Of a DNA stretch of 64,000 nt, positions 1 through 53,136 are shown piece by piece. Each line of letters begins with the position of its first letter. Position 1 is the stretch's first letter. The DNA is from Escherichia coli (GTDB lineage Bacteria; Pseudomonadota; Gammaproteobacteria; Enterobacterales; Enterobacteriaceae). Below the pieces are notes generated by a model, which worked only from the letters and a program-made list of their open reading frames with translations, did not search any database and had not been told where the DNA came from. The stretch lies in the NCBI RefSeq assembly GCF_050920415.1, contig NZ_CP169309.1; one strand, given 5' to 3'. A program made the position numbers and the translations under genes.

Positions 1-1739
1 ACGAAGGGGATAACCGTAAGGGCGTTAGTATTCGTGGTCTGGACAGCAGTTACACCCTGATTCTTGTCGATGGTAAACGCGTTAACTCCCGCAATGCCGT
101 TTTCCGCCATAATGATTTCGATCTGAACTGGATACCTGTCGACTCCATCGAGCGTATTGAAGTGGTCCGTGGCCCGATGTCGTCGCTGTACGGTTCCGAT
201 GCGCTCGGCGGTGTCGTGAATATCATCACCAAAAAAATCGGTCAGAAATGGTCGGGTACCGTTACTGTCGATACCACCATTCAGGAACATCGCGATCGCG
301 GTGATACCTATAACGGTCAGTTCTTTACCAGCGGACCATTAATTGACGGCGTGCTGGGAATGAAAGCTTACGGCAGCCTGGCAAAACGTGAAAAGGATGA
401 CCCACAAAACTCAACGACCACCGATACCGGAGAAACGCCGCGTATTGAAGGATTCTCCAGCCGCGACGGCAATGTGGAATTTGCCTGGACACCGAATCAA
501 AATCACGATTTTACCGCTGGATATGGTTTTGACCGTCAGGATCGTGATTCCGACTCGCTGGACAAAAACCGCCTGGAACGTCAGAACTACTCCGTTAGCC
601 ATAATGGGCGTTGGGATTACGGCACCAGCGAACTGAAATACTACGGTGAGAAAGTCGAAAACAAAAACCCTGGCAACAGCAGCCCGATTACTTCCGAAAG
701 CAATACGGTCGATGGTAAATACACGTTGCCACTGACGGCGATTAATCAGTTTGTTACGGTTGGCGGTGAATGGCGTCACGACAAACTTAGCGATGCAGTA
801 AACCTGACCGGAGGAACAAGCTCCAAAACGTCTGCCAGCCAGTACGCGCTGTTTGTGGAAGATGAATGGCGGATCTTCGAGCCGCTGGCGCTGACGACCG
901 GCGTGCGTATGGACGATCACGAAACCTACGGTGAACACTGGAGTCCTCGTGCCTACCTGGTTTACAACGCCACCGACACCGTAACGGTGAAAGGGGGCTG
1001 GGTGACGGCATTTAAAGCACCTTCTCTGTTGCAACTTAGCCCTGACTGGACGAGCAATTCCTGCCGTGGCGCATGTAAGATTGTGGGTAGCTCGGATCTG
1101 AAACCTGAAACCAGCGAAAGTTGGGAGCTGGGGCTTTACTACATGGGTGAAGAAGGCTGGCTGGAAGGGGTTGAATCCAGCGTGACCGTTTTCCGCAACG
1201 ATGTAAAAGATCGTATCAGCATCAGCCGTACGTCTGACGTCAATGCTGCTCCGGGCTACCAAAACTTTGTCGGTTTTACAGCGGACGGTGTGCCAGTATT
1301 CAGCTACTACAACGTTAACAAAGCACGTATTCAGGGCGTGGAAACCGAACTGAAAATTCCGTTCAACGATGAATGGAAACTGTCGATCAACTACACCTAC
1401 AACGATGGTCGTGATGTCAGCAACGGCGAAAACAAACCGTTGTCCGATCTGCCGTTCCATACCGCTAACGGTACGCTGGACTGGAAACCGCTGGCGCTGG
1501 AAGACTGGTCATTCTATGTTTCTGGTCACTATACCGGGCAGAAACGCGCCGACAGCGCGACGGCTAAAACTCCGGGCGGTTATACCATCTGGAATACCGG
1601 CGCGGCCTGGCAGGTGACCAAAGACGTCAAACTGCGTGCGGGTGTGCTGAACCTTGGCGACAAGGATCTCAGTCGTGACGACTACAGCTATAACGAAGAT
1701 GGACGTCGTTACTTTATGGCAGTGGATTATCGCTTCTGA
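1..1739 (+). CDS. cirA: TonB-dependent outer-membrane siderophore/colicin I receptor, 3' portion (5' end lies upstream of window)
   Basis: Frame is open from window start (translation [27 protein letters not shown]... continues into the 525-aa ORF) and ends with the aromatic C-terminal residue typical of TonB-dependent barrels (...DYRF*); synteny next to yeiG/folE. Confidence 0.85.
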
Positions 1740-1747
1740 TGCGAAGA

Positions 1748-1772
1748 TGCCCGGCGTGGATCCCGCCGGGCA
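1748..1772. terminator. GC-rich hairpin (gcccggcg-N7-cgccgggc) between convergent cirA and island transporter gene; possible bidirectional terminator
   Basis: Inverted repeat read directly in sequence; no strong U-tract on either side. Confidence 0.35.
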
Positions 1773-1797
1773 TAATCCCAGAAATTCGCTTCTGGCT

Positions 1798-3120
1798 TTA
1801 TAACCGATGAAATTTTGCCAGTAAGGCCAGTGAAAATGTTGTCAGCAAAATGGTAATGACTGCGTAAATATACACTCCTGACCATTCCCAACTGTTTTTC
1901 ACCATAATAACTGGAAGCCCTGCCATTGCCGCGCCTAAATAACTAAACAAGCCCCTGAATCCAGTAATGGAACCTGCCGCATCTTTATGCGTAACATCAA
2001 GACACCCGACAGCGAATAACATATGCGGTCCATACAATGCAAACCCCATGATTGTAAACAGAATAGCCGTTAATGTGTAGGAGACGTCCTGCACCAGCGG
2101 TACGAGAACGATGCAAATACATAAAGCGATGGCAAAGATTAATCCTGTCATCCAGCGGTTACTTTTAAACATGAAATCGGACAAGTACCCCGCCAGTAAT
2201 CCCCCAGCAAGTCCACCTGCTTCAAACCAGGATATAATGGAGTTCGCTTTAATCAGGCTCCAGTTATGAACCTGAGAATAATAAATTTGTGGCCAGTCAT
2301 TGAGGATGGTGCGTGCAATATAGACCGACATATCCCCGAGGATAATGAGCCAAACTAATGGGTTGGTAAGAATATATTTAACGAATATTTGCCAAAAACT
2401 GAGATCAACCGGACTTGCTTTAACTTGTGCAAGTTCTGTCGGGTCGTTGCGCCACTTACCGACGTTAGGCAAACCGAGCGTGCCGGGACGATCTTTTATC
2501 GTAAACAAGGCAACAATCCCCATAATCAGTGAGATTACACCCGGAACATAAAAGCCCATCTTCCAGCTGCCACTAAAAGCAATAGCAAAGCTTGTCAGGA
2601 GAGGCGCAAGACTACCGCCAATATTATGCGCAGCTTCAACAACTGCCCACCAGCGTCCGCGTTCATTTTTCGAGAACCACGAGGCCATAATTTTTGCCAT
2701 TGGCGGAAAACTGGTACCCTGGAGAATAGCATTAAGGCTATACAGGATATAGAACGCAGCAACGCTGTCTGAAAAACCGAAAAGAATGTTAACAATACCG
2801 ACGCCAATAAGTACGGGGCCAGTCATCGCTCGTGGGTTAATTTTATCGACTAACATGCCACCTACAAACTTCATGGAGCCATAAAGAATGTAAAAGACCG
2901 ACGACATGATAGCGAAATCTTGTGCGGTTAATGACGTATCCGTTAACATCGCTGGCATGGCCGCAGAGAAATTCTTGCGGGTTAAGTAAAATACGGCATA
3001 AGAGATAAATACAGAGGTGATGATTTCAATGCGAAATTTTTTATAAGTATGATCAACTTCTTCTTTTGGTTTGACCACCGGTTGGTCGGCCTGGCTGAAA
3101 ATAAATTTTTTCAAACTCAT
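1798..3120 (-). CDS. MFS transporter, organophosphate:phosphate antiporter family (UhpT/UhpC/GlpT/PgtP-like), 440 aa
   Basis: 440-aa polytopic protein with 12 predicted hydrophobic segments and motifs typical of sugar-phosphate/phosphoglycerate antiporters; not present at this position in the K-12 arrangement (cirA is directly followed by yeiG there). Confidence 0.75.
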   Translation of the reverse strand: MSLKKFIFSQADQPVVKPKEEVDHTYKKFRIEIITSVFISYAVFYLTRKNFSAAMPAMLTDTSLTAQDFAIMSSVFYILYGSMKFVGGMLVDKINPRAMTGPVLIGVGIVNILFGFSDSVAAFYILYSLNAILQGTSFPPMAKIMASWFSKNERGRWWAVVEAAHNIGGSLAPLLTSFAIAFSGSWKMGFYVPGVISLIMGIVALFTIKDRPGTLGLPNVGKWRNDPTELAQVKASPVDLSFWQIFVKYILTNPLVWLIILGDMSVYIARTILNDWPQIYYSQVHNWSLIKANSIISWFEAGGLAGGLLAGYLSDFMFKSNRWMTGLIFAIALCICIVLVPLVQDVSYTLTAILFTIMGFALYGPHMLFAVGCLDVTHKDAAGSITGFRGLFSYLGAAMAGLPVIMVKNSWEWSGVYIYAVITILLTTFSLALLAKFHRL

Positions 3121-3152
3121 TGTGAGTTTCCTTTTCTGTGAACCTTATGGCG

Positions 3153-4040
3153 CTATAATTTTTCTTCTATAAAAAAGAGAAGCGACTCGAAACCATTAAA
3201 ATTAATCTGGTCAGCAATTTTTTCCCGGGTTTTAGATTTTGCTTTCCATGCCACGCCATTTCCGGCATGCAAAAGCATAGGAATATCATTGGCACCATCT
3301 CCACAGGCAATGATGTTTTCACGGCAGATAGCTAACTCTGTCGCTAAATTTATCAGGGTTTGCTTTTTCTTTTCTGCATTCATAATAGGTAAGGTAATTG
3401 TATCAGTTAACAGATCTTCCTTAATGCGCACAGAGTTAGAAAATGCAAAATCAAGTTGATATTTTTCCTTCAATCGCTCAGTAAAAATATCCAAACCTCC
3501 AGATATAATTGCCGTCTTGAATCCTTTTTCTTTTAGTATGGGAAGAATAGTTTCAAGACCTGGTGAAAGAGTCATCTGTTCACAAACTTGATGCAATATA
3601 TCTTTATGCGTTCCTTTAAGCATGGCAATTCGCCGGGTAAAACTGGTATCAAAATCGATTTTCCCTTCCATCGCTTCACGGGTCAGTGCGGTGATTTTTT
3701 CAGAGATGCCGAGTCTACGGGCTATTTCATCGACACCTTCTTCTTCAACAAAGGTGGAATCCATATCAAAGGCAATAATTCCCTGATCCGGCAAGACCCT
3801 GGGTTTACGGAAAAAATCAAACTGATGATTATCAGCACGGTGACGTAAACCAGCATAAAAAGCAGGGTTGGTAACATCATCTGGTAATACTAGCTTTAGA
3901 TACTCTTTATTTATTTGCCCACTGTAATTCGTTGTTAGCGAAAACACCGAGGGGGAAATCTTTAAATGTTGCAGATAATCTTCCAGACATTTTTGGGTGA
4001 TGTCGATGCCTGTTGGCGACAAGAAATAAATAATCGTCAT
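3153..4040 (-). CDS. HAD-superfamily phosphoserine phosphatase (SerB-like paralog), 295 aa
   Basis: HAD motifs in translation: motif I 'AFDMDSTF', 'ISGGLD', motif IV 'CGDGANDIPML'; overall collinear with E. coli SerB catalytic domain. Confidence 0.8.
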   Translation of the reverse strand: MTIIYFLSPTGIDITQKCLEDYLQHLKISPSVFSLTTNYSGQINKEYLKLVLPDDVTNPAFYAGLRHRADNHQFDFFRKPRVLPDQGIIAFDMDSTFVEEEGVDEIARRLGISEKITALTREAMEGKIDFDTSFTRRIAMLKGTHKDILHQVCEQMTLSPGLETILPILKEKGFKTAIISGGLDIFTERLKEKYQLDFAFSNSVRIKEDLLTDTITLPIMNAEKKKQTLINLATELAICRENIIACGDGANDIPMLLHAGNGVAWKAKSKTREKIADQINFNGFESLLFFIEEKL

Positions 4041-4134
4041 TTACCGCTCCTTTTTATCTGCAATGATTATAATAAGATTTCATAGAGGCTGATGTATCTG
4101 ACAATCACAGTTGTGAATGTTAAATAAAAGATAA

Positions 4135-4195
4135 AAAAGTACTTTTTTTGATACTTTGAAATAATAAGATACTAAAAGTACCATTTTTGATATCT
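4135..4195. promoter_or_regulatory. Pair of ~20-bp direct repeats (aaaagtacYNtttttgatatc) in AT-rich divergent promoter region of the island
   Basis: Direct repeats at 4135-4155 and 4174-4195 seen in sequence; located between divergently transcribed SerB-like and serine dehydratase genes. Confidence 0.3.
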
Positions 4196-4250
4196 TTACC
4201 AGGATATAAAGAATAACTATTTTTCAACGTTGAAGGAATCATTTAAAAAT

Positions 4251-5603
4251 ATGGAAAGCTGCATAGATATATTCAAGATAGTTATTGGTCCATCCAGTTC
4301 CCGCACAGTCGGGCCAATGCGTGCGGCTTATAATTTTGTGTCACAATTGAAACAGCAAGAAATGTTACCTTTGTTGCGGAAAATTGATGTCGAACTTTAT
4401 GGTGCGCTGTCATTAAGCCGCAAGTGCCATAATGTTGATGTGGCGATTTATCTCGGTTTGCAAGGACACTTACCTGACAGCGTTGACATTCGCATGGAAA
4501 TGTCCGCCATCAGGCGTGCAGAAACTGAGGCGACGCTGGAAGTTATGCCTGGTGTCAACGTCAGTGTATCCATTCTTTCTAATCTACAAGCGCATCCGGG
4601 GCACCCTTATGCGATGACATTTCGTGCCAGAGATGACTGGTTTACACTTTATGAAGAAACCTGGTTTTCTATCGGCGACGGTCAAGTGCTAAAAGCAGGA
4701 GAGGCGATTATTCCTCCATCAGTCACTCCACATCCTTTTGAATTCCAGAACGCAAACGAATTATTAAAACTTTGTCAGCAAAATGGATTATCTGTCGCGG
4801 CATTAATGATGAAAAACGAACTGCACTGCCAGACAGCAGCTTTTTTGCATGACGATCTTCATAAAAAATGGGAAGTAATGAAGGATGCGGTTTATCGCGG
4901 GATGCATACAGAAGGATTACTTCCAGGTCCGTTTCAGGTTAACCGTCGTGCCTGTGCTTTATATAAATCGTTGCAGTCAAAGGGGTTTTCCAATGACTTC
5001 CTGACTACGCTCAATTGGGTCAATACTTTTGCCATTGCGGTGAGCGAAGAAAATGCTGCGGGTGGACGTGTCGTGACAGCACCCACCAACGGCGCGAGCG
5101 GTATTATCCCGGCTGTACTGTGCTGGTATGATAAATTCATTCACGAGCTTGATACATACTCCGTTACCCGCTTTTTACTGACCGCTGGTGCCATCGCCAT
5201 TCTGTTCAAAAAAAATGCCTCTATTCTGGGTTCTGAAGTTGGATGTCAGGGGGAAATAGGTGTTGCCAGTTCAATGGCGGCAGCAGGATTAGCAGAACTT
5301 ATGGGCGGGTCAGTGGCTCAGGTACTTAGCGCGGCAGAAATTGCGATGGAGCATCATTTAGGTTTGACCTGTGATCCAGTTGGCGGGCAGGTACAAATTC
5401 CTTGTATTGAACGAAATGCTATTTCAGCTGTGAAAGCTATCAACGCAACGACGATGGCGTTGAGTCGCATAAGCGAGCCGTGCATTACACTGGATGAGAT
5501 AATTTCCGCGATGTATGAAACCGGAAAGGATATGAGCGCTAAATACCGTGAAACTTATCATGGCTGTCTGAGCAAATTGCAGCCAAGAAAAAAGGATGCG
5601 TAA
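4251..5603 (+). CDS. L-serine dehydratase (iron-sulfur, SdaA/SdaB/TdcG family) paralog
   Basis: Translation aligns along its length with E. coli SdaA (e.g. '[12 protein letters not shown]', '[18 protein letters not shown]', '[19 protein letters not shown]', '[21 protein letters not shown]', '[14 protein letters not shown]'). ATG at 4251 matches SdaA N-terminus; an alternative TTG start at 4230 is possible. Confidence 0.85.
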
Positions 5604-5994
5604 GATGAAATATAATACGATGAATAACAACGAAATTATTTTATCACTGTGCGCTCGCATTAAAGAAACGCGTATCTCATTATCATTGACCCAACAGCAG
5701 TTAGCCGAGCGTGCATTGGTGGGCATAGCAACGGTCAAGCGGATTGAAAAGGGGGGAAGTTTAAATCTTGATACTCTCATTTCTCTTCTGCGCGCGCTGA
5801 ATAAATTGCAAAATCTCGATGCCATATTGTTCGAAGCAGAAATGCGTAATTTCAACGAAAATAGTTCCAGCGGCGAAGGGGCAGGGCGACTACAGGTACG
5901 CCAGCAACTGACAGATTTAAACCAGAAGTCTCCAGCCCCGCACGCAGATGACCATAATTTTAGTACGGCGCTGGAAAATACCCTCTGCTGGTGA
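5596..5994 (+). CDS. Small helix-turn-helix (XRE/Cro-like) transcriptional regulator with non-conserved C-terminal tail
   Basis: N-terminal segment 'ISLSLTQQQLAERALVGIATVKRIEKG' is a classic HTH_XRE signature; start overlaps serine dehydratase stop; stop codon abuts yeiG stop back-to-back. Confidence 0.55.
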   Translation: MRKMKYNTMNNNEIILSLCARIKETRISLSLTQQQLAERALVGIATVKRIEKGGSLNLDTLISLLRALNKLQNLDAILFEAEMRNFNENSSSGEGAGRLQVRQQLTDLNQKSPAPHADDHNFSTALENTLCW

Positions 5995-6864
<870 letters not shown>

Positions 6865-7088
6865 TCATCATACCGTTTATTCAATGTGCTGTGAGTAACT
6901 TTCACTTCCGTATATACATAACGATGTTTTAACATCTGCTGATGAAAGGCAGCGGCAATTACAATAATTATCGCTGTGAATACTGGATTATGTGCGCCGC
7001 CTCACGCACAATAATCAGGCTGTAAATCAGCTTAATAACTTTGCCCCCACGCAGGGCGGAGGCGTCACACCTGCAGGAGAAATCATAA

Positions 7089-7757
7089 ATGCCATCACTC
7101 AGTAAAGAAGCGGCCCTGGTTCATGAAGCGTTAGTTGCGCGAGGACTGGAAACACCGCTGCGCCCGCCCGTGCATGAAATGGATAACGAAACGCGCAAAA
7201 GCCTTATTGCTGGTCATATGACCGAAATCATGCAGCTGCTGAATCTCGACCTGGCTGATGACAGTTTGATGGAAACGCCGCATCGCATCGCTAAAATGTA
7301 TGTCGATGAAATTTTCTCCGGTCTGGATTACGCCAATTTCCCGAAAATCACCCTCATTGAAAACAAAATGAAGGTTGATGAAATGGTCACCGTGCGCGAT
7401 ATCACCCTGACCAGTACCTGTGAACACCATTTTGTTACCATCGATGGCAAAGCGACGGTGGCTTATATCCCGAAAGATTCGGTGATCGGTCTGTCAAAAA
7501 TTAACCGTATCGTGCAGTTCTTTGCCCAGCGTCCGCAGGTGCAGGAACGTCTGACGCAGCAAATTCTCATTGCGCTACAAACGCTGCTGGGCACCAATAA
7601 CGTGGCTGTCTCTATCGATGCGGTACATTACTGCGTGAAGGCGCGCGGCATCCGCGATGCAACCAGTGCCACGACAACGACCTCTCTTGGTGGATTGTTC
7701 AAATCCAGTCAGAATACGCGCCACGAGTTTCTGCGCGCTGTGCGTCATCACAACTGA
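7089..7757 (+). CDS. folE: GTP cyclohydrolase I, 222 aa
   Basis: Length and conserved motifs ('TSTCEHHFV', '[11 protein letters not shown]'); synteny with yeiB/galS. Confidence 0.95.
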
Positions 7758-8995: not shown

Positions 8996-9072
8996 GAAGT
9001 CCTGAATTCAGTGCTGACAAAATAGCCGCCAGCAAGCAGGCATTTACTGCAATCTCATAACAGGTAGTGAAT

Positions 9073-10113
9073 ATGATCACCATTCGTGATGTAGCGCGTC
9101 AGGCTGGCGTCTCTGTGGCAACGGTTTCCCGGGTGCTCAATAACAGCACGCTGGTCAGTGCCGACACGCGTGAAGCAGTAATGAAAGCAGTGAGCGAGCT
9201 GGATTATCGGCCAAACGCCAATGCCCAGGCGCTGGCAACTCAGGTTAGCGATACCATTGGCGTGGTGGTAATGGACGTTTCTGATGCGTTTTTCGGCGCG
9301 CTGGTAAAAGCGGTGGATCTCGTCGCCCAGCAGCACCAGAAATATGTGCTAATAGGTAATAGCTATCATGAAGCGGAAAAAGAGCGTCATGCCATTGAGG
9401 TGTTAATTCGCCAGCGTTGTAACGCGTTGATTGTTCATTCAAAAGCGTTAAGCGATGATGAATTAGCGCAGTTTATGGATAACATTCCCGGTATGGTGTT
9501 AATCAACCGCGTTGTGCCAGGTTACGCCCATCGTTGCGTTTGCCTGGATAATCTCAGTGGTGCCCGAATGGCCACGCGCATGTTGCTCAATAATGGTCAT
9601 CAACGTATTGGTTATCTTTCTTCCAGCCACGGCATTGAAGATGATGCCATGCGCAAAGCAGGCTGGATGAGTGCGTTGAAAGAGCAGGATATTATTCCGT
9701 CGGAAAGCTGGATTGGCACTGGCACCCCGGACATGCCAGGCGGTGAGGCGGCGATGGTTGAACTGCTGGGGCGCAATCTACAACTTACCGCTGTATTTGC
9801 ATACAACGACAATATGGCCGCTGGCGCACTGACGGCATTAAAAGATAATGGTATTGCGATTCCGTTACATCTCTCAATCATCGGTTTCGATGATATTCCC
9901 ATCGCTCGTTACACCGACCCACAATTAACGACCGTGCGTTATCCTATTGCTTCGATGGCAAAATTAGCTACCGAACTGGCCTTACAAGGGGCAGCAGGCA
10001 ACATTGATCCTCACGCCAGCCACTGTTTTATGCCGACGTTAGTGCGTCGCCATTCTGTCGCAACGCGCCAGAATGCGGCAGCGATCACTAACTCAACAAA
10101 TCAGTCGATGTAA
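9073..10113 (+). CDS. galS: LacI/GalR-family transcriptional repressor of the mgl/gal regulon (isorepressor)
   Basis: N-terminal HTH '[25 protein letters not shown]', LacI-type periplasmic-binding fold, position upstream of mglBAC. Confidence 0.9.
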
Positions 10114-10125
10114 CCGCTTTCAATC

Positions 10126-10141
10126 TGTGAGTGATTTCACA
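10126..10141. promoter_or_regulatory. Consensus CRP binding site TGTGAgtgattTCACA in the galS-mglB intergenic region
   Basis: Perfect match to both CRP half-sites with 6-bp spacer, read in sequence. Confidence 0.5.
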
Positions 10142-10391
10142 GTATATTAACAATGCGATAGCTATGATTGCACCGTTTTAACGCTGTAACCTGCATGTAA
10201 CAGTGAATCATCACTTTCACCGAGGTAATAGCGTCATAACAACAATTAAAGCCTTTTCTGGAGCGTTACCGGGCATGGAAGAACGAATTTTAAAAAGTGA
10301 GCTTCGGCGTTCAGTAACACTTCATTAACTCTACTGCCCCGCCGAGCATTTATCTCAAGCACTACCCTGCATAAGAAAAACCGGAGATACC

Positions 10392-11390
10392 ATGAATAAG
10401 AAGGTGTTAACCCTGTCTGCTGTAATGGCCAGTATGTTATTCGGTGCCACTGCACACGCTGCTGATACCCGTATTGGTGTAACAATCTATAAGTACGACG
10501 ATAACTTTATGTCTGTTGTGCGCAAGGCTATCGAACAAGATGCGAAAGCCGCGCCAGATGTTCAGCTGCTGATGAATGATTCTCAGAATGACCAGTCCAA
10601 GCAGAACGATCAGATCGATGTATTGCTGGCGAAAGGGGTGAAGGCACTGGCGATCAACCTGGTTGACCCGGCAGCTGCGGGTACGGTGATTGAGAAAGCG
10701 CGCGGGCAAAACGTGCCGGTGGTTTTCTTCAACAAAGAACCGTCTCGTAAGGCGCTGGATAGCTACGATAAAGCCTACTATGTCGGCACTGACTCCAAAG
10801 AGTCCGGCATTATTCAGGGCGATTTGATTGCTAAGCATTGGGCGGCAAACCAGGATTGGGATCTCAACAAAGACGGTCAGATTCAATTCGTACTACTGAA
10901 AGGTGAACCGGGCCATCCGGATGCAGAAGCACGCACCACTTACGTGATTAAAGAGCTGAATGACAAAGGCATCAAAACTGAACAGTTACAGTTAGATACC
11001 GCTATGTGGGATACCGCTCAGGCGAAAGATAAGATGGACGCCTGGCTGTCTGGCCCGAACGCCAACAAAATCGAAGTGGTTATCGCCAACAATGATGCGA
11101 TGGCAATGGGCGCAGTAGAAGCACTGAAAGCACACAACAAGTCCAGCATTCCGGTGTTTGGTGTCGATGCGCTGCCAGAAGCTCTGGCACTGGTGAAATC
11201 TGGTGCACTGGCGGGCACCGTATTGAATGATGCTAACAACCAGGCGAAAGCGACCTTTGATCTGGCGAAAAACCTGGCCGATGGCAAAGGTGCGGCTGAT
11301 GGTACCAACTGGAAAATCGACAACAAAGTGGTCCGCGTACCTTATGTTGGCGTAGATAAAGACAACCTGGCTGAATTCAGCAAGAAATAA
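10392..11390 (+). CDS. mglB: Periplasmic galactose/glucose-binding protein, 332 aa
   Basis: Signal peptide followed by periplasmic-binding-protein sequence; conserved mglBAC order. Confidence 0.95.
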
Positions 11391-20111: not shown

Positions 20112-20205
20112 TTAATTCGTAAAACGTGCTACCGATCACATTAAGAATTCTCAGCATAGTTGAATTACAGGGAAGTAACATCGGGCGAGTGCCCAGTTCA
20201 GCACA

Positions 20206-21114
20206 CTAATTCTGCTGTAAAAAGTGCAGAAACTGACTTAAAGCATAAGAAGGCGTTTCGTTATTACGCCAAAACACACCGACGCTGCCTTTCTGTTCAA
20301 TCTTTGGCAGGTTGAGGATCACCAGTTGCCCCTGGCTGGCATAACGTTGCGCCAGGCGTAATGACAAAATAGAGATCATATTGCTGCTTTGTAACAGGTT
20401 GGTACTGACGTTCATCGACGCCGACTCAATCGTGTTTTCTGGCAGCATCACGCCGTGGTCTACCAGCGCATTATCAATGCTGATGCGGATGGGGGTACCT
20501 GTCGGCCAGACTATCCACCGCCAGTTAGCAAGATCATTCCAGCTGAGGGTGGCGTATTTCGCCAGTGGATGCTCAGGACGGGCGACAAAGCATACCGGCT
20601 CGGTGTAGAGCACGCGATAATTCAGCGGCAGCTGCAACGCGCGACCGCCAATTCGCCCAACCACCACATCGATAGAACCTGCCAACAGATCTTGCAGCAA
20701 TGGGGTCATCACCTTCTCTTCGATATTCAGGTGTAGAGTTGGCATCTCCTTGAGCAAATGCAAAATCGCCTGGGATACGCAGTCAGTGGCGACGGGAGAA
20801 CAGCCAATTTTCAGACTGCCGACCAGTCCACCTTGTTTAAAGCGAGCCAGTTCATATTGCGATCTTTCCATGTCATTGATTAACCGTTGGGCATGTTGCA
20901 ATAACAATTTGCCGCCTTCGGTCGGACGAAGCCCGTTGCTGTGCCGCTCAAAAAGTGTGAGTCCGATCTCATCTTCCAGTTGTGACAACCATTTCGAAAG
21001 CGCGGGTTGGGTGATATTCATCATCCGTGCGACATGGGTCAGATTACCCTGTTCACCCAGCGCCACCAGCATTTGCAGGTGATGTAGTTTTAGTTTTTGC
21101 GCCCAGTTCGCCAT
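20206..21114 (-). CDS. mhbR: LysR-family transcriptional regulator, divergent from the gentisate operon
   Basis: N-terminal HTH ('LHHLQMLVALGEQGNLTHVARMMNITQPALSKWLSQLE') plus LysR substrate-binding domain; divergent arrangement as in Klebsiella mhbR. Start at in-frame ATG 21114 (longer ORF to 21162 possible). Confidence 0.75.
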   Translation of the reverse strand: MANWAQKLKLHHLQMLVALGEQGNLTHVARMMNITQPALSKWLSQLEDEIGLTLFERHSNGLRPTEGGKLLLQHAQRLINDMERSQYELARFKQGGLVGSLKIGCSPVATDCVSQAILHLLKEMPTLHLNIEEKVMTPLLQDLLAGSIDVVVGRIGGRALQLPLNYRVLYTEPVCFVARPEHPLAKYATLSWNDLANWRWIVWPTGTPIRISIDNALVDHGVMLPENTIESASMNVSTNLLQSSNMISILSLRLAQRYASQGQLVILNLPKIEQKGSVGVFWRNNETPSYALSQFLHFLQQN

Positions 21115-21240
21115 TTGCCATAACCTCCAGGTTATCTCTCTGCCCGAAATGCCATTGTACATCTCATCTCTTTAATCACATTATCGCAACATATACAAAA
21201 CAAAAGAAACATCTACCTTACCTGCACTGAGGCATTTACT

Positions 21241-22599
21241 ATGACTCAACGACGTGATTTACAAGCACTTATCGATGCCGCTCCGGTCGGCAAGATGCAG
21301 TGGCGCGTTATCATCTGCTGTTTTCTGGTGGTAATGCTCGATGGTTTTGACACCGCGGCTATCGGCTTTATCGCCCCTGATATTCGCACTCACTGGCAAC
21401 TCACCGCAGGCGATCTCGCCCCGCTTTTTGGTGCGGGTCTGCTGGGTTTAACGGCAGGCGCACTGCTTTGTGGCCCGTTGTCTGACCGCTTTGGCCGCAA
21501 ACGGGTGATAGAGCTATGCGTCTTTTTATTTGGCGCGTTAAGTCTCGCCTCTGCGTTTTCACCAGATCTGCAAACGCTGGTATTACTGCGTTTTCTCACC
21601 GGCCTGGGGCTTGGCGGGGCGATGCCGAACACCATCACCATGACCTCGGAATATCTGCCTGCCCGTCGCCGGGGCGCGCTGGTGACGCTGATGTTTTGCG
21701 GCTTTACGCTGGGTTCGGCGTTTGGCGGGATTGTCAGCGCACAGCTGGTGCCGGTGATTGGCTGGCACGGCATTCTGGTGTTGGGGGGCGTGTTACCGCT
21801 GATGCTGTTTGTCGCACTGCTGGTAGTTCTGCCGGAATCGCCACGCTGGCAGGTGCGCCGCCAGCTACCGCAGGCGGTGATTGCGAAAACCGTCAGCGCC
21901 ATCACCCGCGAGCGTTATGTCGATACCCACTTTTATCTCATTGAATCAGCCTCCGTTACAAAAGGCAGCATTCGTCAACTGTTTATGGGACGTCAGTTAC
22001 CCATTACGTTGATGCTTTGGGTGGTGTTCTTTATGAGCCTGCTGATTATTTACCTGCTCTCAAGCTGGATGCCAACGCTGTTGAACCATCGCGGCATAGA
22101 CCTGCAACACGCGTCCTGGGTCACCGCCGCGTTCCAGATTGGCGGTACGTTGGGCGCGCTGGCGCTGGGCGTGCTGATGGATAAGTTCAATCCTTTCCGC
22201 GTGCTGGCGCTGAGCTATGCCGTAGGCGCTGTATGCATCGTGATGATTGGCTTAAGCCAGGATGGATTATGGCTGATGGCGCTGGCGATTTTCGGCACCG
22301 GCATTGGCATTAGCGGATCTCAGGTGGGGTTGAACGCGTTGACCGCAACGCTCTACCCAACGCAAAGCCGCGCCACGGGCGTGAGCTGGTCAAACGCCGT
22401 AGGCCGCTGCGGCGCGATTGTCGGCTCGCTTTCTGGCGGCCTGATGATGGCGATGAATTTCTCTTTCGACACCCTGTTTTTCATTATCGCTGTGCCCGCG
22501 GCGATCAGTGCGGTGATGTTAAGCCTGCTGATCACCGTGGTTCGCCAGTCGACCTCTGTCCCTGACTCACTGCCTCGCGCAGGCGTTGTGAACGAATAA
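21241..22599 (+). CDS. mhbT: MFS aromatic-acid:H+ symporter (3-hydroxybenzoate transporter-like), 452 aa
   Basis: 12-TM MFS with 'GRKR' loop motif; first gene of catabolic operon. Confidence 0.75.
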
Positions 22600-22610
22600 G
22601 GAGCATCCTA

Positions 22611-23639
22611 ATGACTGATAACAATCAAAAAAGCCGCGAGCAATTTTATCAGCATATTTCCGGGCAAAACCTGACCCCGCTGTGGGAGTCACTGCACCAC
22701 CTGGTGCCGAAAACGCCCAACGCCAACTGTGCGCCAGCGTACTGGAATTATCAGGAGATCCGCCCGCTGCTGCTGGAGAGCGGCAGCCTGATTGGCGCGA
22801 AAGAAGCTGTGCGTCGTGTGCTGGTACTGGAAAACCCGGCGCTGCGCGGGCAGTCTTCCATTACCGCGACTTTATATGCCGGTTTGCAACTGATCATGCC
22901 GGGCGAAGTGGCACCGAGTCATCGTCATAACCAATCGGCGCTGCGTTTTATTGTTGAAGGCAAAGGGGCATTTACCGCCGTTGATGGCGAACGCACGCCA
23001 ATGAATGAGGGCGATTTTATCCTGACCCCACAATGGCGCTGGCACGATCATGGTAACCCTGGCGACGAACCGGTTATCTGGCTCGATGGACTGGATCTGC
23101 CATTAGTGAACACTCTGGGCTGCGGTTTTGCCGAAGATTACCCGGAAGAGCAACAACCGGTCACGCGTAAAGAGGGGGATTATCTGCCGCGTTATGCCGC
23201 CAATATGTTGCCGCTGCGCCATCAGACGGGGAACTCCTCACCGATCTTTAACTATCGTTATGACCGTAGCCGCGAAGTGCTGCACGATTTAACCCGCCTG
23301 GGCGATGCCGACGAGTGGGATGGCTACAAAATGCGCTACGTCAACCCGGTCACCGGCGGCTATCCGATGCCGTCGATGGGCGCTTTCCTGCAACTGCTAC
23401 CGAAAGGGTTCGCCTCCCGCGTGGCGCGTACCACTGACAGCACTATCTACCATGTGGTGGAAGGTAGCGGACAAGTCACCATCGGCAATGAAATCTTCAC
23501 CTTTAGTGCAAAAGATCTCTTTGTGGTGCCGACCTGGCACGGCGTGTCATTCCAGACTACGCAAGATACCGTTTTATTCAGTTTTTCGGACAGACCGGTA
23601 CAAGAAGCCCTGGGGCTGTTCCGCGAAGCGCGTTATTAA
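22611..23639 (+). CDS. mhbD: Gentisate 1,2-dioxygenase (bicupin), 342 aa
   Basis: Two cupin modules with His triad ('[14 protein letters not shown]', 'WRWHDHGN'); length typical of gentisate dioxygenases. Confidence 0.8.
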
Positions 23640-23654
23640 TTTGGGAGAGAGAAA

Positions 23655-24356
23655 ATGACTCAATATGTATTCGAACCACAAGCGCCCGTTACCGTACCGG
23701 TTGTTGGCAGTGATGAACAATTCCCCGTGCGCCGCGTTTACTGCGTCGGGCGTAACTATGCTGCCCACGCCCGCGAAATGGGCTTTGATCCGGATCGTGA
23801 ACCCCCCTTCTTCTTCTGCAAACCAGCAGATGCCGTTGTTCCGGTCGCCGCTGGCGAAACGCTGGCGCTGCCGTATCCGGCGCAGACCGATAACTATCAT
23901 TACGAAATTGAACTGGTGGTGGCGATTGGTAAAAAGGGCAGCGATATCCCACTGGAAAAGGCCCATGAATATGTCTGGGGTTATGCCACAGGCCTTGATA
24001 TGACTCGCCGTGACCGTCAAATGGAAATGCGTCAGATGGGCCGCCCGTGGGAAATCGGCAAAGCATTTGATCTCTCGGCCCCCATCGCACCGCTGCACAA
24101 AGCCAGCGAAACTGGCGGTATTGATAACGCACCTATCTGGTTACAGGTTAACGGTGAAGATCACCAGCGCAGCGATATTCGCCATCTCATCTGGTCGGTG
24201 AATGAAACCATCAGCTACCTGTCAGGCTTCTTTGAACTGCAACCGGGCGATCTAATCTTTACCGGTACGCCGGAAGGGGTTGGCCCAGTAGTCAAAGGTG
24301 ATGTGATCACGGGCAACGTCGAGGGCTTAACCCCTATCGCGGTGAAGATCGTCTGA
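23655..24356 (+). CDS. mhbH: Fumarylpyruvate hydrolase (FAH family), 233 aa
   Basis: FAH-fold motifs ('[13 protein letters not shown]', 'GTPEGVGPV'). Confidence 0.75.
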
Positions 24357-24361
24357 GGTGC

Positions 24362-25009
24362 ATGATGAAGCTGTACAGTTTTTTTAATAGTTCAGCATCG
24401 TACCGGGTACGCATTGCGCTGGCGCTGAAAGGCATTAATTACCAGACCGAAGGGGTGAATATCCGTATTGGTCGGCAAAATGAACTGGCCTATCGGCGGA
24501 TGAATCCTGTCGGGCTGGTGCCGACGCTGCTGACTGACGAGGGCGAGTCACTCGGTCAGTCGCTGGCGATTATTGACTGGCTGGATCGTCACTACCCGCA
24601 AGTTCCGCTGGTGCCGCAGGAAGAACCGGCCCGCAATAAGGTGCTGGGAATTGTCTATGCCATCGCTTGTGATATTCATCCATTGAATAACCTGCGCGTG
24701 CTGCGCTATCTGACCGAAGAGCTGAACGTCAGTGAAGAAGAGAAAAAACGCTGGTATGCGCACTGGATCCAGCAAGGGTTAAGCGCGGTGGAACAGCTAC
24801 TGCGCCAGAGCCAGTCGGGGCAATTTTGTGTGGGTGAGACGCCGACGCTGGCAGACTGCTGCCTTGTTCCGCAGTGGGCGAACGCGCTACGTATGAACTG
24901 CGATCTGAGAGGATATCCGCGCTGCAAAGCGGTGTACGACGCCTGCACACAACTGCCAGCGTTCATTGCCGCAGCGCCAGAAAATCAACAAGATAAAATT
25001 TCAGCCTGA
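24362..25009 (+). CDS. mhbI: Maleylpyruvate isomerase (zeta-class glutathione S-transferase), 215 aa
   Basis: GST N-terminal thioredoxin fold ('KLYSFFNSSASYRVRIAL') and GST-zeta-like C-terminus; sits between hydrolase and hydroxylase. Confidence 0.7.
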   Translation: MMKLYSFFNSSASYRVRIALALKGINYQTEGVNIRIGRQNELAYRRMNPVGLVPTLLTDEGESLGQSLAIIDWLDRHYPQVPLVPQEEPARNKVLGIVYAIACDIHPLNNLRVLRYLTEELNVSEEEKKRWYAHWIQQGLSAVEQLLRQSQSGQFCVGETPTLADCCLVPQWANALRMNCDLRGYPRCKAVYDACTQLPAFIAAAPENQQDKISA

Positions 25010-25023
25010 CCAGGAGAACCATA

Positions 25024-26217
25024 ATGACTAAAGTGACACGCGCAGTAATTGTGGGAGGCGGGATCGGCGGTGCGGCAACTGCGCTGTCACTGGCCCGCCA
25101 GGGGATCAAAGTGGTGCTGCTGGAAAAGGCGCATGAGATCGGTGAGATTGGCGCAGGTATCCAGTTGGGGCCAAATGCGTTTTCGGCGTTGGATAGTCTT
25201 GGTGTTGGCGAAATCGCCCGCCAACGTGCGGTATTCACCGATCACATCACCATGATGGACGCGGTGAACGCCGAAGAAGTGGTGCGTATTGAAACCGGGC
25301 AGGCCTTTCGTGACCATTTCGGCGGCCCTTACGCGGTGATCCACCGCGTTGATATTCATGCCTCGGTGTGGGAAGCGGTACTGACGCATCCGGACGTGGA
25401 ATATCACACCTCCACCAACGTCGTGGATATTCGCGAGACGGAAGACGATGTCACCGTGTTTGACGATCGCGGCAATAGCTGGAGCGGCGATATTCTGATT
25501 GGCTGTGACGGTGTGAAATCAGTGGTGCGCCAGAGCTTATTGGGCGATGCGCCGCGTGTCACCGGACATGTGGTCTACCGTGCGGTTATCGATTGTGCCG
25601 ATATGCCGGAAGATTTGCGCATTAACGCACCGGTACTGTGGGCGGGGCCGCATTGTCACCTGGTGCATTACCCTTTGCGCGGCGGCAAGCAGTATAACCT
25701 GGTGGTAACATTCCACAGCCGCCAGCAGGAAGAGTGGGGCGTGAAGGATGGCAGTAAAGAGGAAGTGCTCTCTTACTTTGAAGGGATTCACCCCCGTCCG
25801 CGCCAGATGTTGGATAAACCGACTTCATGGCGACGCTGGTCAACCGCTGACCGTGAACCGGTGGCGAAGTGGGGAACGAAGCGCATAACGCTTGTGGGCG
25901 ATGCGGCCCATCCGGTGGCGCAATATATGGCGCAGGGAGCCTGTATGGCGCTGGAAGATGCAGTAACGCTGGGTAAGGCGCTGGCGCAGTGTGAGGGTGA
26001 TGCGGCGCAAGCCTTTGCGCTGTATGAGTCGGTACGAATTCCGCGCACCGCGCGCATCGTCTGGTCGACCCGTGAAATGGGGCGGGTTTATCACGCCGCA
26101 GGGGTAGAACGTCAGGTACGTAACCTGCTGTGGAAAGGGAAATCGCAGGCAGAGTTTTATCGCGGCATGGAGTGGCTGTACGGCTGGAAAGAAGATAACT
26201 GTTTGCAACCACGCTGA
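25024..26217 (+). CDS. mhbM: 3-Hydroxybenzoate 6-hydroxylase (FAD-dependent aromatic monooxygenase, salicylate hydroxylase-like), 397 aa
   Basis: FAD motifs 'VIVGGGIGGAATAL' and 'GDAAHPVAQYMAQGACMALEDA'. Confidence 0.8.
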   Translation: MTKVTRAVIVGGGIGGAATALSLARQGIKVVLLEKAHEIGEIGAGIQLGPNAFSALDSLGVGEIARQRAVFTDHITMMDAVNAEEVVRIETGQAFRDHFGGPYAVIHRVDIHASVWEAVLTHPDVEYHTSTNVVDIRETEDDVTVFDDRGNSWSGDILIGCDGVKSVVRQSLLGDAPRVTGHVVYRAVIDCADMPEDLRINAPVLWAGPHCHLVHYPLRGGKQYNLVVTFHSRQQEEWGVKDGSKEEVLSYFEGIHPRPRQMLDKPTSWRRWSTADREPVAKWGTKRITLVGDAAHPVAQYMAQGACMALEDAVTLGKALAQCEGDAAQAFALYESVRIPRTARIVWSTREMGRVYHAAGVERQVRNLLWKGKSQAEFYRGMEWLYGWKEDNCLQPR

Positions 26218-26375
26218 GCACTTCTTCACCCAATCAGGCGCACGGGCGGTCCCCTCGCCCCTTCGGGAGAGGGTTAGGGTGAGGGAAAAATCTTGCCCGA
26301 ATTAATCAGTAAGTCAGTTTGTCTGCAAACACCAGAGGCGCTAACATAGCGCCTCATTTTTTTGCGGGTGATGAT

Positions 26376-52551: not shown

Positions 52552-52789
52552 GAACGAATTATAACCATCGGTGGACCCCGTTGCAATTAAGATAATGAGA
52601 TTTATAATCCTGACTGTTGGGACGTTGCGCCGGATCGAACCCATTTCAAGTCCTGGCTACCGGACGGGTGGTGCCGCAGGTAGTGCCCTGATCCGGAGTG
52701 CAACATCGTGGTCCAACATACGTAAACCAGTATCGACAGGCAGTGTAAGGGTAAGATGCTGGTGTTGCGCTCCTTAATAAGGAGAGCGG

Positions 52790-52879
52790 ATGGACACGCT
52801 GACACAAAAGTTAACCGTGCTCATTGCCGTACTGGAGTTATTAGTGGCTCTGTTACGGCTGATTGATTTGTTGAAGTAA
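52790..52879 (+). CDS. zorO: Type I toxin-like small hydrophobic peptide, 29 aa (MDTLTQKLTVLIAVLELLVALLRLIDLLK), ZorO-like
   Basis: Not in ORF track; hand-translated. GGAGAG Shine-Dalgarno 4 nt upstream; single amphipathic/hydrophobic helix ending in Lys, like TisB/ZorO class toxins; long structured 5' leader with plus-strand -10 TATAAT at 52613-52618. Gene symbol assigned from memory of the O157:H7 zor-orz locus, not from a search. Confidence 0.55.
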   Translation: MDTLTQKLTVLIAVLELLVALLRLIDLLK

Positions 52880-52932
52880 CGGGCAAATTGAAACGCATCT
52901 AAGGGGGAATACCGTCTCCCTCTTTAATAAAG

Positions 52933-53136
52933 CTATACTCGTCATAATTCAAGTTGCATGTGCTGCGACTGCGTGTTATTCGGCCCATCCATGGACCTCA
53001 CCCCTTACGGGGCCGCTGCAAGTAGCGTTCAAATCCGCTCCATGCGGATTTGTCGTTCACCCCAGTCACTTACTTTAGTAAGCTCCTGGGGATTCACTCG
53101 CTTATCGCCTTCCTGCAACTTGAATTATTTAGAGTA
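52933..53136. repeat. ERIC (enterobacterial repetitive intergenic consensus) element, long variant
   Basis: Contains reverse complement of the ERIC core 'gtgaatccccaggagcttactaaagtaagtgactgggg' flanked by the terminal inverted repeats 'aagttgcatgtgctgcg ... ttcctgcaacttgaattatttagagt'. Confidence 0.65.

Follow-up and report, generated by a model that had tools for sequence, protein, structure and literature searches.

A conserved four-gene cluster between cirA and yeiG as a candidate phosphoserine uptake and catabolism module in Escherichia coli and related genera

Genes and features between cirA and yeiG

In a 64,000-nucleotide stretch of Escherichia coli DNA (hereafter the window; contig NZ_CP169309.1 of RefSeq assembly GCF_050920415.1), four intact genes that are absent from K-12 occupy the interval between cirA and yeiG. 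According to the open reading frame (ORF) listing and the NCBIfam models, they encode a transporter of the major facilitator superfamily (MFS), a SerB-type phosphatase, an iron-sulfur (Fe-S) L-serine dehydratase and a helix-turn-helix (HTH) regulator, arranged as two divergent pairs that flank an AT-rich promoter region (Table 1). This is the gene content, arrangement and set of family memberships that the original prediction, made from the letters of the window, had described, and the RefSeq annotation of the identical record (E. coli MFDS1022581) agrees with the ORF listing. Taking the proteins, their relatives and the promoter region together, we propose, with our confidence about evenly balanced, that the cluster may be a catabolic module, complete in itself and under local regulation, whose substrate is a phospho-amino acid from outside the cell, O-phospho-L-serine being the most likely one.

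In K-12, cirA and yeiG are convergent with their stop codons 31 bp apart, and genomes that lack the cluster cover ~11-12% of a 4.8-kb query, as two flank pieces only. At the right-hand border the HTH stop codon TGA (5992-5994) immediately adjoins the yeiG stop (TTA on the + strand, 5995-5997), an abutment that had been noticed earlier and is plain in the sequence. The segment is also AT-richer than its surroundings, as had been claimed, with a GC content of 0.32-0.47 compared with ~0.50-0.56 in the flanks and a minimum of 0.32-0.34 across the divergent promoter region. Within the right-hand pair, the HTH gene is translationally coupled to the dehydratase gene, whose start codon ATG at 4251 is conserved across genera; TTG at 4230 is an alternative start of the same ORF. 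The stem-loop at the left-hand border has a shorter version in K-12, is not followed by a T-run and was not called by the terminator scan, which returned no convincing intrinsic terminator. Positions 1500-7200 contained no Rfam match at E values up to 0.1.

Table 1 Features of the cirA-yeiG interval (positions in the window)
Feature	Position	Strand	Remark
cirA, 3' part	to 1739	+	left flank
GC-rich stem-loop GCCCGGCG-TGGATCC-CGCCGGGC	1749..1771	.	between the convergent cirA and MFS gene 3' ends; read from sequence
Extra segment relative to K-12-type E. coli	1757..6002		4246 bp; blastn homology to K-12 stops at 1756 and restarts at 6003
MFS transporter, organophosphate:phosphate antiporter family, 440 aa	1798..3120	-	predicted phosphoserine:phosphate antiporter
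SerB-type HAD-IB phosphatase paralog, 295 aa	3153..4040	-	32 bp upstream of the MFS gene, same strand
Divergent promoter/operator spacer, 210 bp, AT-rich	4041..4250	.	GC minimum of the segment
Palindrome ATCACAGTTGTGAAT, core TCACA-N2-TGTGA	4104..4118	.	nearly invariant in 11 orthologous intergenic regions
Operator-like repeat 1, AAAAGTACTTTTTTTGATA	4135..4153	+	19-nt direct repeat, conserved across genera
Sigma-70-like sites toward the dehydratase gene	4156-4184, 4187-4214	+	predicted
Operator-like repeat 2, AAAAGTACCATTTTTGATA	4174..4192	+	19-nt direct repeat, conserved across genera
Single-chain Fe-S L-serine dehydratase paralog, 450 aa	4251..5603	+	
XRE-family HTH regulator, 129 aa	5605..5994	+	starts 1 bp past the dehydratase stop; predicted local repressor
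yeiG	5995-6831	-	right flank

Distribution and descent of the cluster

A survey of presence and absence at the cirA-yeiG junction, which had been proposed together with the original prediction, found the segment in 89 of 5426 complete E. coli genomes (~1.6%), in 85 of them over at least 80% of its length and always as one chromosomal copy per carrier. The E. coli alleles fall into groups of at least 99%, 97.1%, 96.3% and 94.9% identity, and thus differ by up to 5%, which is comparable to the flanking DNA. In three records (NZ_CP073939.1, NZ_CP026929.2 and NZ_CP172867.1) the cluster is interrupted by the insertion sequence IS1, with the dehydratase gene disrupted in one and the cluster partly missing in two; these broken copies show ongoing decay in some E. 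coli lineages.

The cluster extends beyond E. coli. In the protein database, the nearest transporter cluster bears the label Salmonella enterica, and on its contig the four genes follow one another between yeiG and cirA as they do in the window. When species-representative genomes were scanned, the cluster turned up beside yeiG, with its gene order unchanged, in E. whittamii, in S. enterica subsp. arizonae and diarizonae and in eight Citrobacter species. On the far side of the transporter gene, cirA is retained in Salmonella and in Citrobacter sp. 18056 (L018), while seven of the eight Citrobacter loci (L012, L013, L015-L017, L022 and L024; ~9035-10720) carry a different TonB-dependent receptor, on the opposite strand and 33-37% identical to CirA. 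Between E. coli and Salmonella, the MFS protein is 92% identical, the phosphatase 64%, the dehydratase 72% and the HTH protein 75%; the corresponding values for the flanking proteins are 86% (cirA), 87% (yeiG), 96% (folE) and 85% (yeiB).

Synonymous divergence (dS) from E. whittamii is 0.29-0.61 for the four cluster genes and 0.36-0.60 for the flanks, and against Salmonella and Citrobacter it is saturated or nearly so for the cluster genes, likewise for yeiG. The ratios of nonsynonymous to synonymous divergence (dN/dS) are low: 0.05 for the MFS gene, 0.15 for the phosphatase, 0.11 for the dehydratase and 0.08 for the HTH gene. Together, these values imply that the cluster diverged in step with its neighbours and that all four genes have been under purifying selection.

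These results bear directly on the claim that the segment is an accessory island inserted between two convergent genes, which they do not support: the synteny, the flank-like dS and the clean junctions all speak against it. A recent horizontal insertion at cirA-yeiG in a minority of E. coli could explain why the segment has a GC content below that of its flanks and why it is found in just 1.6% of complete E. coli genomes. However, the same site and gene order recur in E. whittamii, Salmonella and Citrobacter, the alleles within E. coli are as divergent as the DNA around them, synonymous sites are as far diverged or saturated as those of the neighbouring genes, and neither an integrase, an insertion sequence, a tRNA gene nor flanking direct repeats are present at the segment junctions. 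The lower GC is moreover common to all orthologs of the cluster, so it is not a sign of recent transfer. We therefore rejected a mobile genomic island or recent insertion on synteny, dS and junction anatomy, and regard it as very improbable. The simplest reading of the synteny, the flank-like divergence and the junctions is that the locus is probably ancestral to the Escherichia-Salmonella-Citrobacter group and was cleanly lost from most E. coli. The presence/absence polymorphism would then be an old one and a clean case of its kind, in which purifying selection maintains the locus in 1.6% of E. coli and in the sister genera and the other lineages have lost it.

Family membership and predicted specificity of the proteins

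All four proteins were compared with the NCBIfam models and their curated cutoffs. The MFS protein belongs to the organophosphate:phosphate antiporter (OPA) family, as had been predicted, and within that family it stays below every cutoff. Its best curated match is UhpC (426 bits, cutoff 564), followed by the PgtP subfamily model (343, cutoff 408), GlpT (279, cutoff 633), the PgtP equivalog (217, cutoff 750) and UhpT (198, cutoff 497), so that a check among UhpT, PgtP and GlpT, which had been left open by the original prediction, returned none of the three. UhpC-type proteins are the nearest relatives of this transporter family, at ~40% identity, and its homologs match PF07690. The OPA residues R48, K84, H165 and R270 (R45, K80, H165 and R269 in GlpT) stay unchanged across an alignment that includes GlpT, UhpT and UhpC, and this phosphate-binding Arg/Lys/His/Arg set is likewise kept in comparison with GlpT (1PW4) and human G6PT1. 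One database homolog, P0013, systematically shows I, L, F or V in place of many residues from end to end; it appears to be an artefact of sequencing or assembly and was left out of the transporter alignments.

Because UhpC is the top-scoring curated family, the MFS protein might be thought to be a UhpC-like membrane sensor and not a transporter. We consider the chance of this close to negligible, since the score lies under the UhpC cutoff, the pocket positions differ from those of UhpC-type proteins and the sole regulator at the cluster is a cytoplasmic XRE protein. The sensor assignment was rejected because UhpA/UhpB-type partners are not present at the cluster.

The positions that govern substrate choice in UhpT set this family apart. 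In transmembrane helix 11 the protein has T386 at the position of UhpT D388 and R389 at that of UhpT K391 (motif GSITGFRG), both invariant in the family, while the same two positions are Thr/Val in UhpC-type proteins, Ala/Thr in GlpT and Asp/Lys in UhpT. The compensated Asp388-Lys391 pair of hexose-phosphate specificity in UhpT is thus replaced by Thr and Arg. Removal of D388, which leaves K391 unpaired, moves UhpT from glucose-6-phosphate to phosphoenolpyruvate (PEP) or 3-phosphoglycerate (Hall and Maloney, summarised in PMC12483993), and the uncompensated Arg at the K391 position accordingly predicts a phosphoester that carries a carboxylate. In addition, the family has an invariant Glu (E162) three positions ahead of the substrate-binding His165, at a site that is Asn in GlpT, UhpT and UhpC; D263 and H366 are further family-invariant residues. 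M145 of human G6PT1, which is aligned with His165, lines the substrate pocket. On this argument from position, E162 is plausibly turned toward the substrate, where it could pair with an amino group. An extra cation and an extra anion would be what the zwitterionic end of phosphoserine needs.

The same signature can be read in another way, in which the MFS protein is a PgtP-like carrier of phosphoglycerate or PEP and the two enzyme paralogs work in an internal route (3-phosphoglycerate through SerA and SerC to phosphoserine, serine and pyruvate) or are only loosely linked to it. The unpaired Arg at the UhpT K391 position is the PEP/3-phosphoglycerate signature and the PgtP subfamily model gives 343 bits, both in favour of such a carrier. 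On the other hand, the PgtP equivalog score falls far from its cutoff and the protein is closer to UhpC, and E162 would be unfavourable in a pocket for an all-anionic substrate. Moreover, 3-phosphoglycerate feeds glycolysis directly, which would make a dedicated phosphatase and dehydratase needless, and Salmonella already has PgtP, one of its three such antiporters together with GlpT and UhpT (2023 organophosphate-use study, PMC10715179). We rate the PgtP-like carrier as distinctly unlikely.

The phosphatase passes the SerB equivalog TIGR00338 (205.8 bits, cutoff 144.15), corroborating the earlier assignment as a SerB-like protein of the HAD family, and fails NF008350, the model of full-length enterobacterial SerB (196.9 bits, cutoff 413). 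It is 41% identical to K-12 SerB in the catalytic domain only, and its N-terminal 85 amino acids do not align with that protein; in the homolog search this 85-residue domain was confined to E. coli, E. whittamii, Scandinavium, Salmonella and Citrobacter. Over its full length the phosphatase matches the crystal structure PDB 4EZE ('haloacid dehalogenase-like hydrolase') with an E value of 8.5e-117. The 4EZE chain is identical to the Salmonella cluster protein at 290 of 295 positions and to the window phosphatase at 185 of 295, which identifies 4EZE, on sequence identity, as the Salmonella ortholog of the window phosphatase. We take 4EZE to be S. Typhi t0658, a target of the Enzyme Function Initiative, and this label fits the assignment of t0660 to the regulator.

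The residues of the phosphatase point to phosphoserine. Catalysis in the Methanocaldococcus jannaschii phosphoserine phosphatase (PSP; 1F5S and 1L7P) depends on D11, D13, S99, K144, D167 and D171, while E20, R56, M43, F49, G100 and N170 surround the serine moiety. All twelve positions checked against this enzyme are identical in the window protein, in 4EZE and in the Salmonella ortholog: D92, D94, E101, M124, F130 and R137 correspond to D11, D13, E20, M43, F49 and R56, and S180, G181, K225, D248, N251 and D252 to S99, G100, K144, D167, N170 and D171.

The dehydratase, which had been predicted to be an Fe-S L-serine dehydratase, is placed in that family by TIGR00720 (L-serine ammonia-lyase; 547 bits, cutoff 345), while it remains below the SdaA/SdaB equivalog cutoffs (NF011614 and NF011598; 511 against 873 and 465 against 942). 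The three Cys that bind the Fe-S cluster (C332, C374 and C385, in the motifs GCQGE, TCDP and PCIERN) are conserved with respect to 4RQO and SdaA. In all orthologs in the cluster, GPSSSHT is replaced by GPSSSRT and TGKGHHTD by SRKCHNVD, and the basic C-terminal tail (...QPRKKDA) lacks the Cys of the SdaA tail (...VQCD). The protein is ~51% identical to K-12 SdaA. Its homologs are at least 67% identical in E. coli, E. whittamii, Citrobacter, Scandinavium and Salmonella and then fall to 54% or less, in ordinary SdaA-type proteins, and this sharp drop implies a dedicated dehydratase subfamily that was co-inherited with the cluster.

These enzymes also constrain a closely related alternative, in which the scheme is the same and the substrate is another phospho-amino acid, such as O-phospho-L-threonine, O-phospho-D-serine, phosphohomoserine or a related compound. 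The transporter pocket predicts only a phosphate and a carboxylate, possibly with an amine, and the dehydratase motifs are non-canonical, both of which leave room for such a compound. The phosphatase, however, has the full recognition set for L-phosphoserine, including the counterparts of M43 and F49 that pack on the serine side chain, and the dehydratase clears the cutoff of the L-serine ammonia-lyase equivalog by a wide margin. A phospho-amino acid other than L-phosphoserine thus seems quite improbable to us.

Relatives of the transporter outside the syntenic group are informative as well. In Photobacterium lutimaris a 68%-identical transporter gene is followed after 58 bp by the gene of a 300-residue SerB-type phosphatase (TIGR00338, 243 bits), which is 35% identical to the cluster phosphatase and 50% identical to K-12 SerB, implying that two different SerB lineages have been paired with this transporter family. 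Upstream of that pair, a stretch of ~1.36 kb (L003, 5637-7000) is devoid of any convincing ORF and may hold regulatory or RNA elements. At the two pocket positions, a 53%-identical relative (P0014; L005, 1993-4385) shows Lys and Asn, and its gene divergently adjoins that of a D-2-hydroxyacid dehydrogenase (NF006263, 458 bits); its substrate may be a different carboxylated organophosphate. The neighbours of the P0014 gene are, in our impression, presumably epsilonproteobacterial.

Promoter region, proposed route and relation to known systems

The HTH protein gives weak, sub-cutoff NCBIfam matches of the XRE/HipB type and matches the transcriptional regulator 4GHJ with an E value of 9e-5; PF01381 is found on its Salmonella ortholog. 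Its gene is present in every syntenic cluster, at 68-95% identity. A toxin-antitoxin role, for which a HipB-type antitoxin as the best match might be cited, was rejected because a toxin ORF is lacking and the gene is inherited together with the metabolic genes in every genus. Transposon insertions in its Salmonella ortholog, STM2195, are under-represented in LB (PMC3487940), a deficit that lends weak support to a repressor whose loss is costly.

An intergenic alignment, in which the row Salm_L002 was ignored, showed blocks in the spacer that are conserved across Escherichia, Salmonella arizonae and Citrobacter. The palindrome is unique within the 64-kb window, and its half-sites stand in the reverse order of those in a CRP site. 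The pattern of the two direct repeats, AAAAGTAC(N)TTTTTGATA, has its copies 39 bp apart and matches twice in 64 kb against an expectation of 0.03. The two copies are situated around the sigma-70-like sites; repeat 2 overlaps the second hexamer of the sigma-70-like site at 4156-4184 and the first hexamer of that at 4187-4214. The repeats and the palindrome are candidate operators for the XRE protein. Neither a Pho box (CTGTCATAWAWCTGTCAY, up to 3 mismatches, whole window) nor a CRP site (up to 2 mismatches, promoter region) was found. The lack of a Pho box gives no reason to assume Pho-controlled use of the substrate for its phosphorus, and, together with the lack of a CRP site and of an Rfam element, leads us to expect local, substrate-specific control rather than scavenging as part of the Pho regulon.

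The route that the original prediction had outlined, from a phosphorylated substrate to L-serine and on to pyruvate and ammonia, appears consistent with every sequence-level test that was run. In the scheme that we propose, the MFS protein would act as a phosphate-linked OPA antiporter that releases cytoplasmic inorganic phosphate (Pi) and takes in external phosphoserine. The co-transcribed SerB-type HAD phosphatase would convert phosphoserine to L-serine and Pi, the latter feeding further exchange, and the divergently transcribed Fe-S dehydratase would turn serine into pyruvate and ammonium. The XRE regulator, which shares a transcript with the dehydratase, would bind the two 19-nt repeats and probably repress both operons until an inducer appears. 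We infer the transported substrate, the direction of flux, the repression by the HTH protein and the inducer. The case for phosphoserine draws on the specificity residues of the phosphatase, the charges in the transporter pocket, the pairing in Photobacterium and the purifying selection, as well as on the gene order fixed across genera, the restriction of the phosphatase and dehydratase subfamilies to those taxa plus Scandinavium, and the conserved, statistically unexpected promoter motifs.

Several points weigh against the phosphoserine scheme. The R389 signature is equally compatible with phosphoglycerate or PEP, and the role given to E162 is argued from its position alone. The departures SSSRT and SRKCHNVD mean that the substrate or the regulation of the dehydratase may differ. 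The SerB of P. lutimaris may be the housekeeping gene and not a second copy, and periplasmic phosphatases could hydrolyse phosphoserine before its uptake. Finally, three Gallibacterium species (L019, L020 and L023; 7001-8320) have the transporter alone, 77-82% identical to the E. coli protein. This identity seems high for a membrane protein compared between Enterobacteriaceae and Pasteurellaceae, and suggests that the transporter gene was transferred by itself between the families.

The Gallibacterium genes could also be taken to mean that there is no single pathway at all, and that condition-specific isozymes of SerB and SdaA lie beside a carrier for some other organophosphate, kept together through common regulation or simply by chance. 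In keeping with such an assembly, a serB gene and three serine dehydratases are already present in E. coli, and the closest model of the MFS protein is UhpC. We nevertheless find it unlikely. Three genera share one fixed gene order, and both enzyme subfamilies are confined to the same taxa. A gap of 32 bp separates the MFS and phosphatase genes, which lie on the same strand, the pairing of the transporter with a SerB recurs independently in Photobacterium, and conserved motifs are shared in the divergent promoter region.

Returning to the phosphoserine scheme, a broader form of it would have the MFS protein found a fifth, hitherto overlooked bacterial OPA specificity class, a phosphoserine or phospho-amino-acid:Pi exchanger. 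With the phosphatase, the dehydratase and the repressor it would make up a complete route by which free phosphoserine becomes a nutrient for Salmonella, for Citrobacter and for the few E. coli that carry the cluster; we give this somewhat less than an even chance. The sources of phosphoserine are open to speculation, and could be digested phosphoproteins such as casein and egg-yolk phosvitin, or host serine biosynthesis. Gallibacterium is a bacterium of the avian reproductive tract, and its stand-alone transporter might, equally speculatively, hint at the same niche.

Elsewhere in the window, a 6.2-kb segment between yohJ and dusC (20148-26330) is likewise absent from K-12. It is annotated for 3-hydroxybenzoate/gentisate degradation, with a LysR regulator, mhbT, gtdA, an FAH-family hydrolase, maiA and a 3-hydroxybenzoate 6-monooxygenase, and may be a second locus in common with Salmonella, where STM2178 is listed as a 'putative 1,2-dioxygenase' (PMC3487940). 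Positions 1-60445 of the window are ~95-96% identical to K-12, with 1-kb bins from 86% to 99%, and the stretches 52646-53116 and 55231-55846 have no megablast match to the K-12 region. The haplotype of the window occurs at 99% identity or more in only 14-17 of the 5426 complete E. coli genomes. The low identity to K-12 and the rarity of the haplotype imply that either the lineage as a whole or this part of its chromosome has diverged to an unusual degree.

The Salmonella cluster has the same four genes, in the same order and at the same cirA-yeiG site, as the window. We take it to be STM2195-STM2198, or t0657-t0660 in S. Typhi. Of these tags, the pair STM2195 = t0660 is confirmed by PMC3487940, which lists the gene as a 'putative DNA-binding protein' without a K-12 counterpart. 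Incidental mentions report that deletion of STM14_2709 improved growth under iron restriction and that STM14_2710 carried a silent single-nucleotide polymorphism. Full-text literature searches returned no functional study of the cluster, no published function for 4EZE and no described bacterial transporter for a phospho-amino acid. The earlier remark that an operon of this composition is not known to have been characterised holds within these searches, although the locus itself is known in Salmonella and the structure of its phosphatase has been solved as 4EZE. Engineered incorporation of phosphoserine into proteins depends on its entry into E. coli, and a dedicated importer, if the scheme is true, could be a useful tool for that purpose. 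The scheme would also provide a function for the orphan structure 4EZE, a nutrient route for a phospho-amino acid, and a substrate for a fourth Pi-linked antiporter of Salmonella that was not considered in PMC10715179.

Compared with the known systems, the transporter and the two enzymes each combine a familiar core with features of their own. The MFS protein shares with UhpT, UhpC, GlpT and PgtP (TC 2.A.1.4) the 12-helix family, the Arg/Lys/His/Arg phosphate set and the expected exchange of a phosphoester for Pi. It differs from them in its own invariant residues (R389 with T386, E162, D263 and H366) and its sub-cutoff scores, in the co-transcription with a phosphatase and in the predicted regulator, an XRE protein in place of UhpABC, GlpR or PgtABC. 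The phosphatase has the HAD-IB fold, the DXDST motif and the phosphoserine-recognition residues of housekeeping SerB (E. coli b4388; M. jannaschii PSP, 1F5S), whereas its N-terminal domain is unrelated and its context is catabolic, not biosynthetic. The dehydratase has the single-chain beta+alpha Fe-S architecture and the three cluster Cys of SdaA, SdaB, TdcG and the Legionella enzyme 4RQO, from which it is set apart by an identity of ~51%, by the SSSRT and SRKCHNVD motifs and by a tail without the Cys of SdaA. The C-terminal Cys of the Legionella enzyme is reportedly an intrinsic inhibitor. In sum, these comparisons make a new substrate class plausible for a transporter family that is already known, with the gene set in an operon that is small and conserved.

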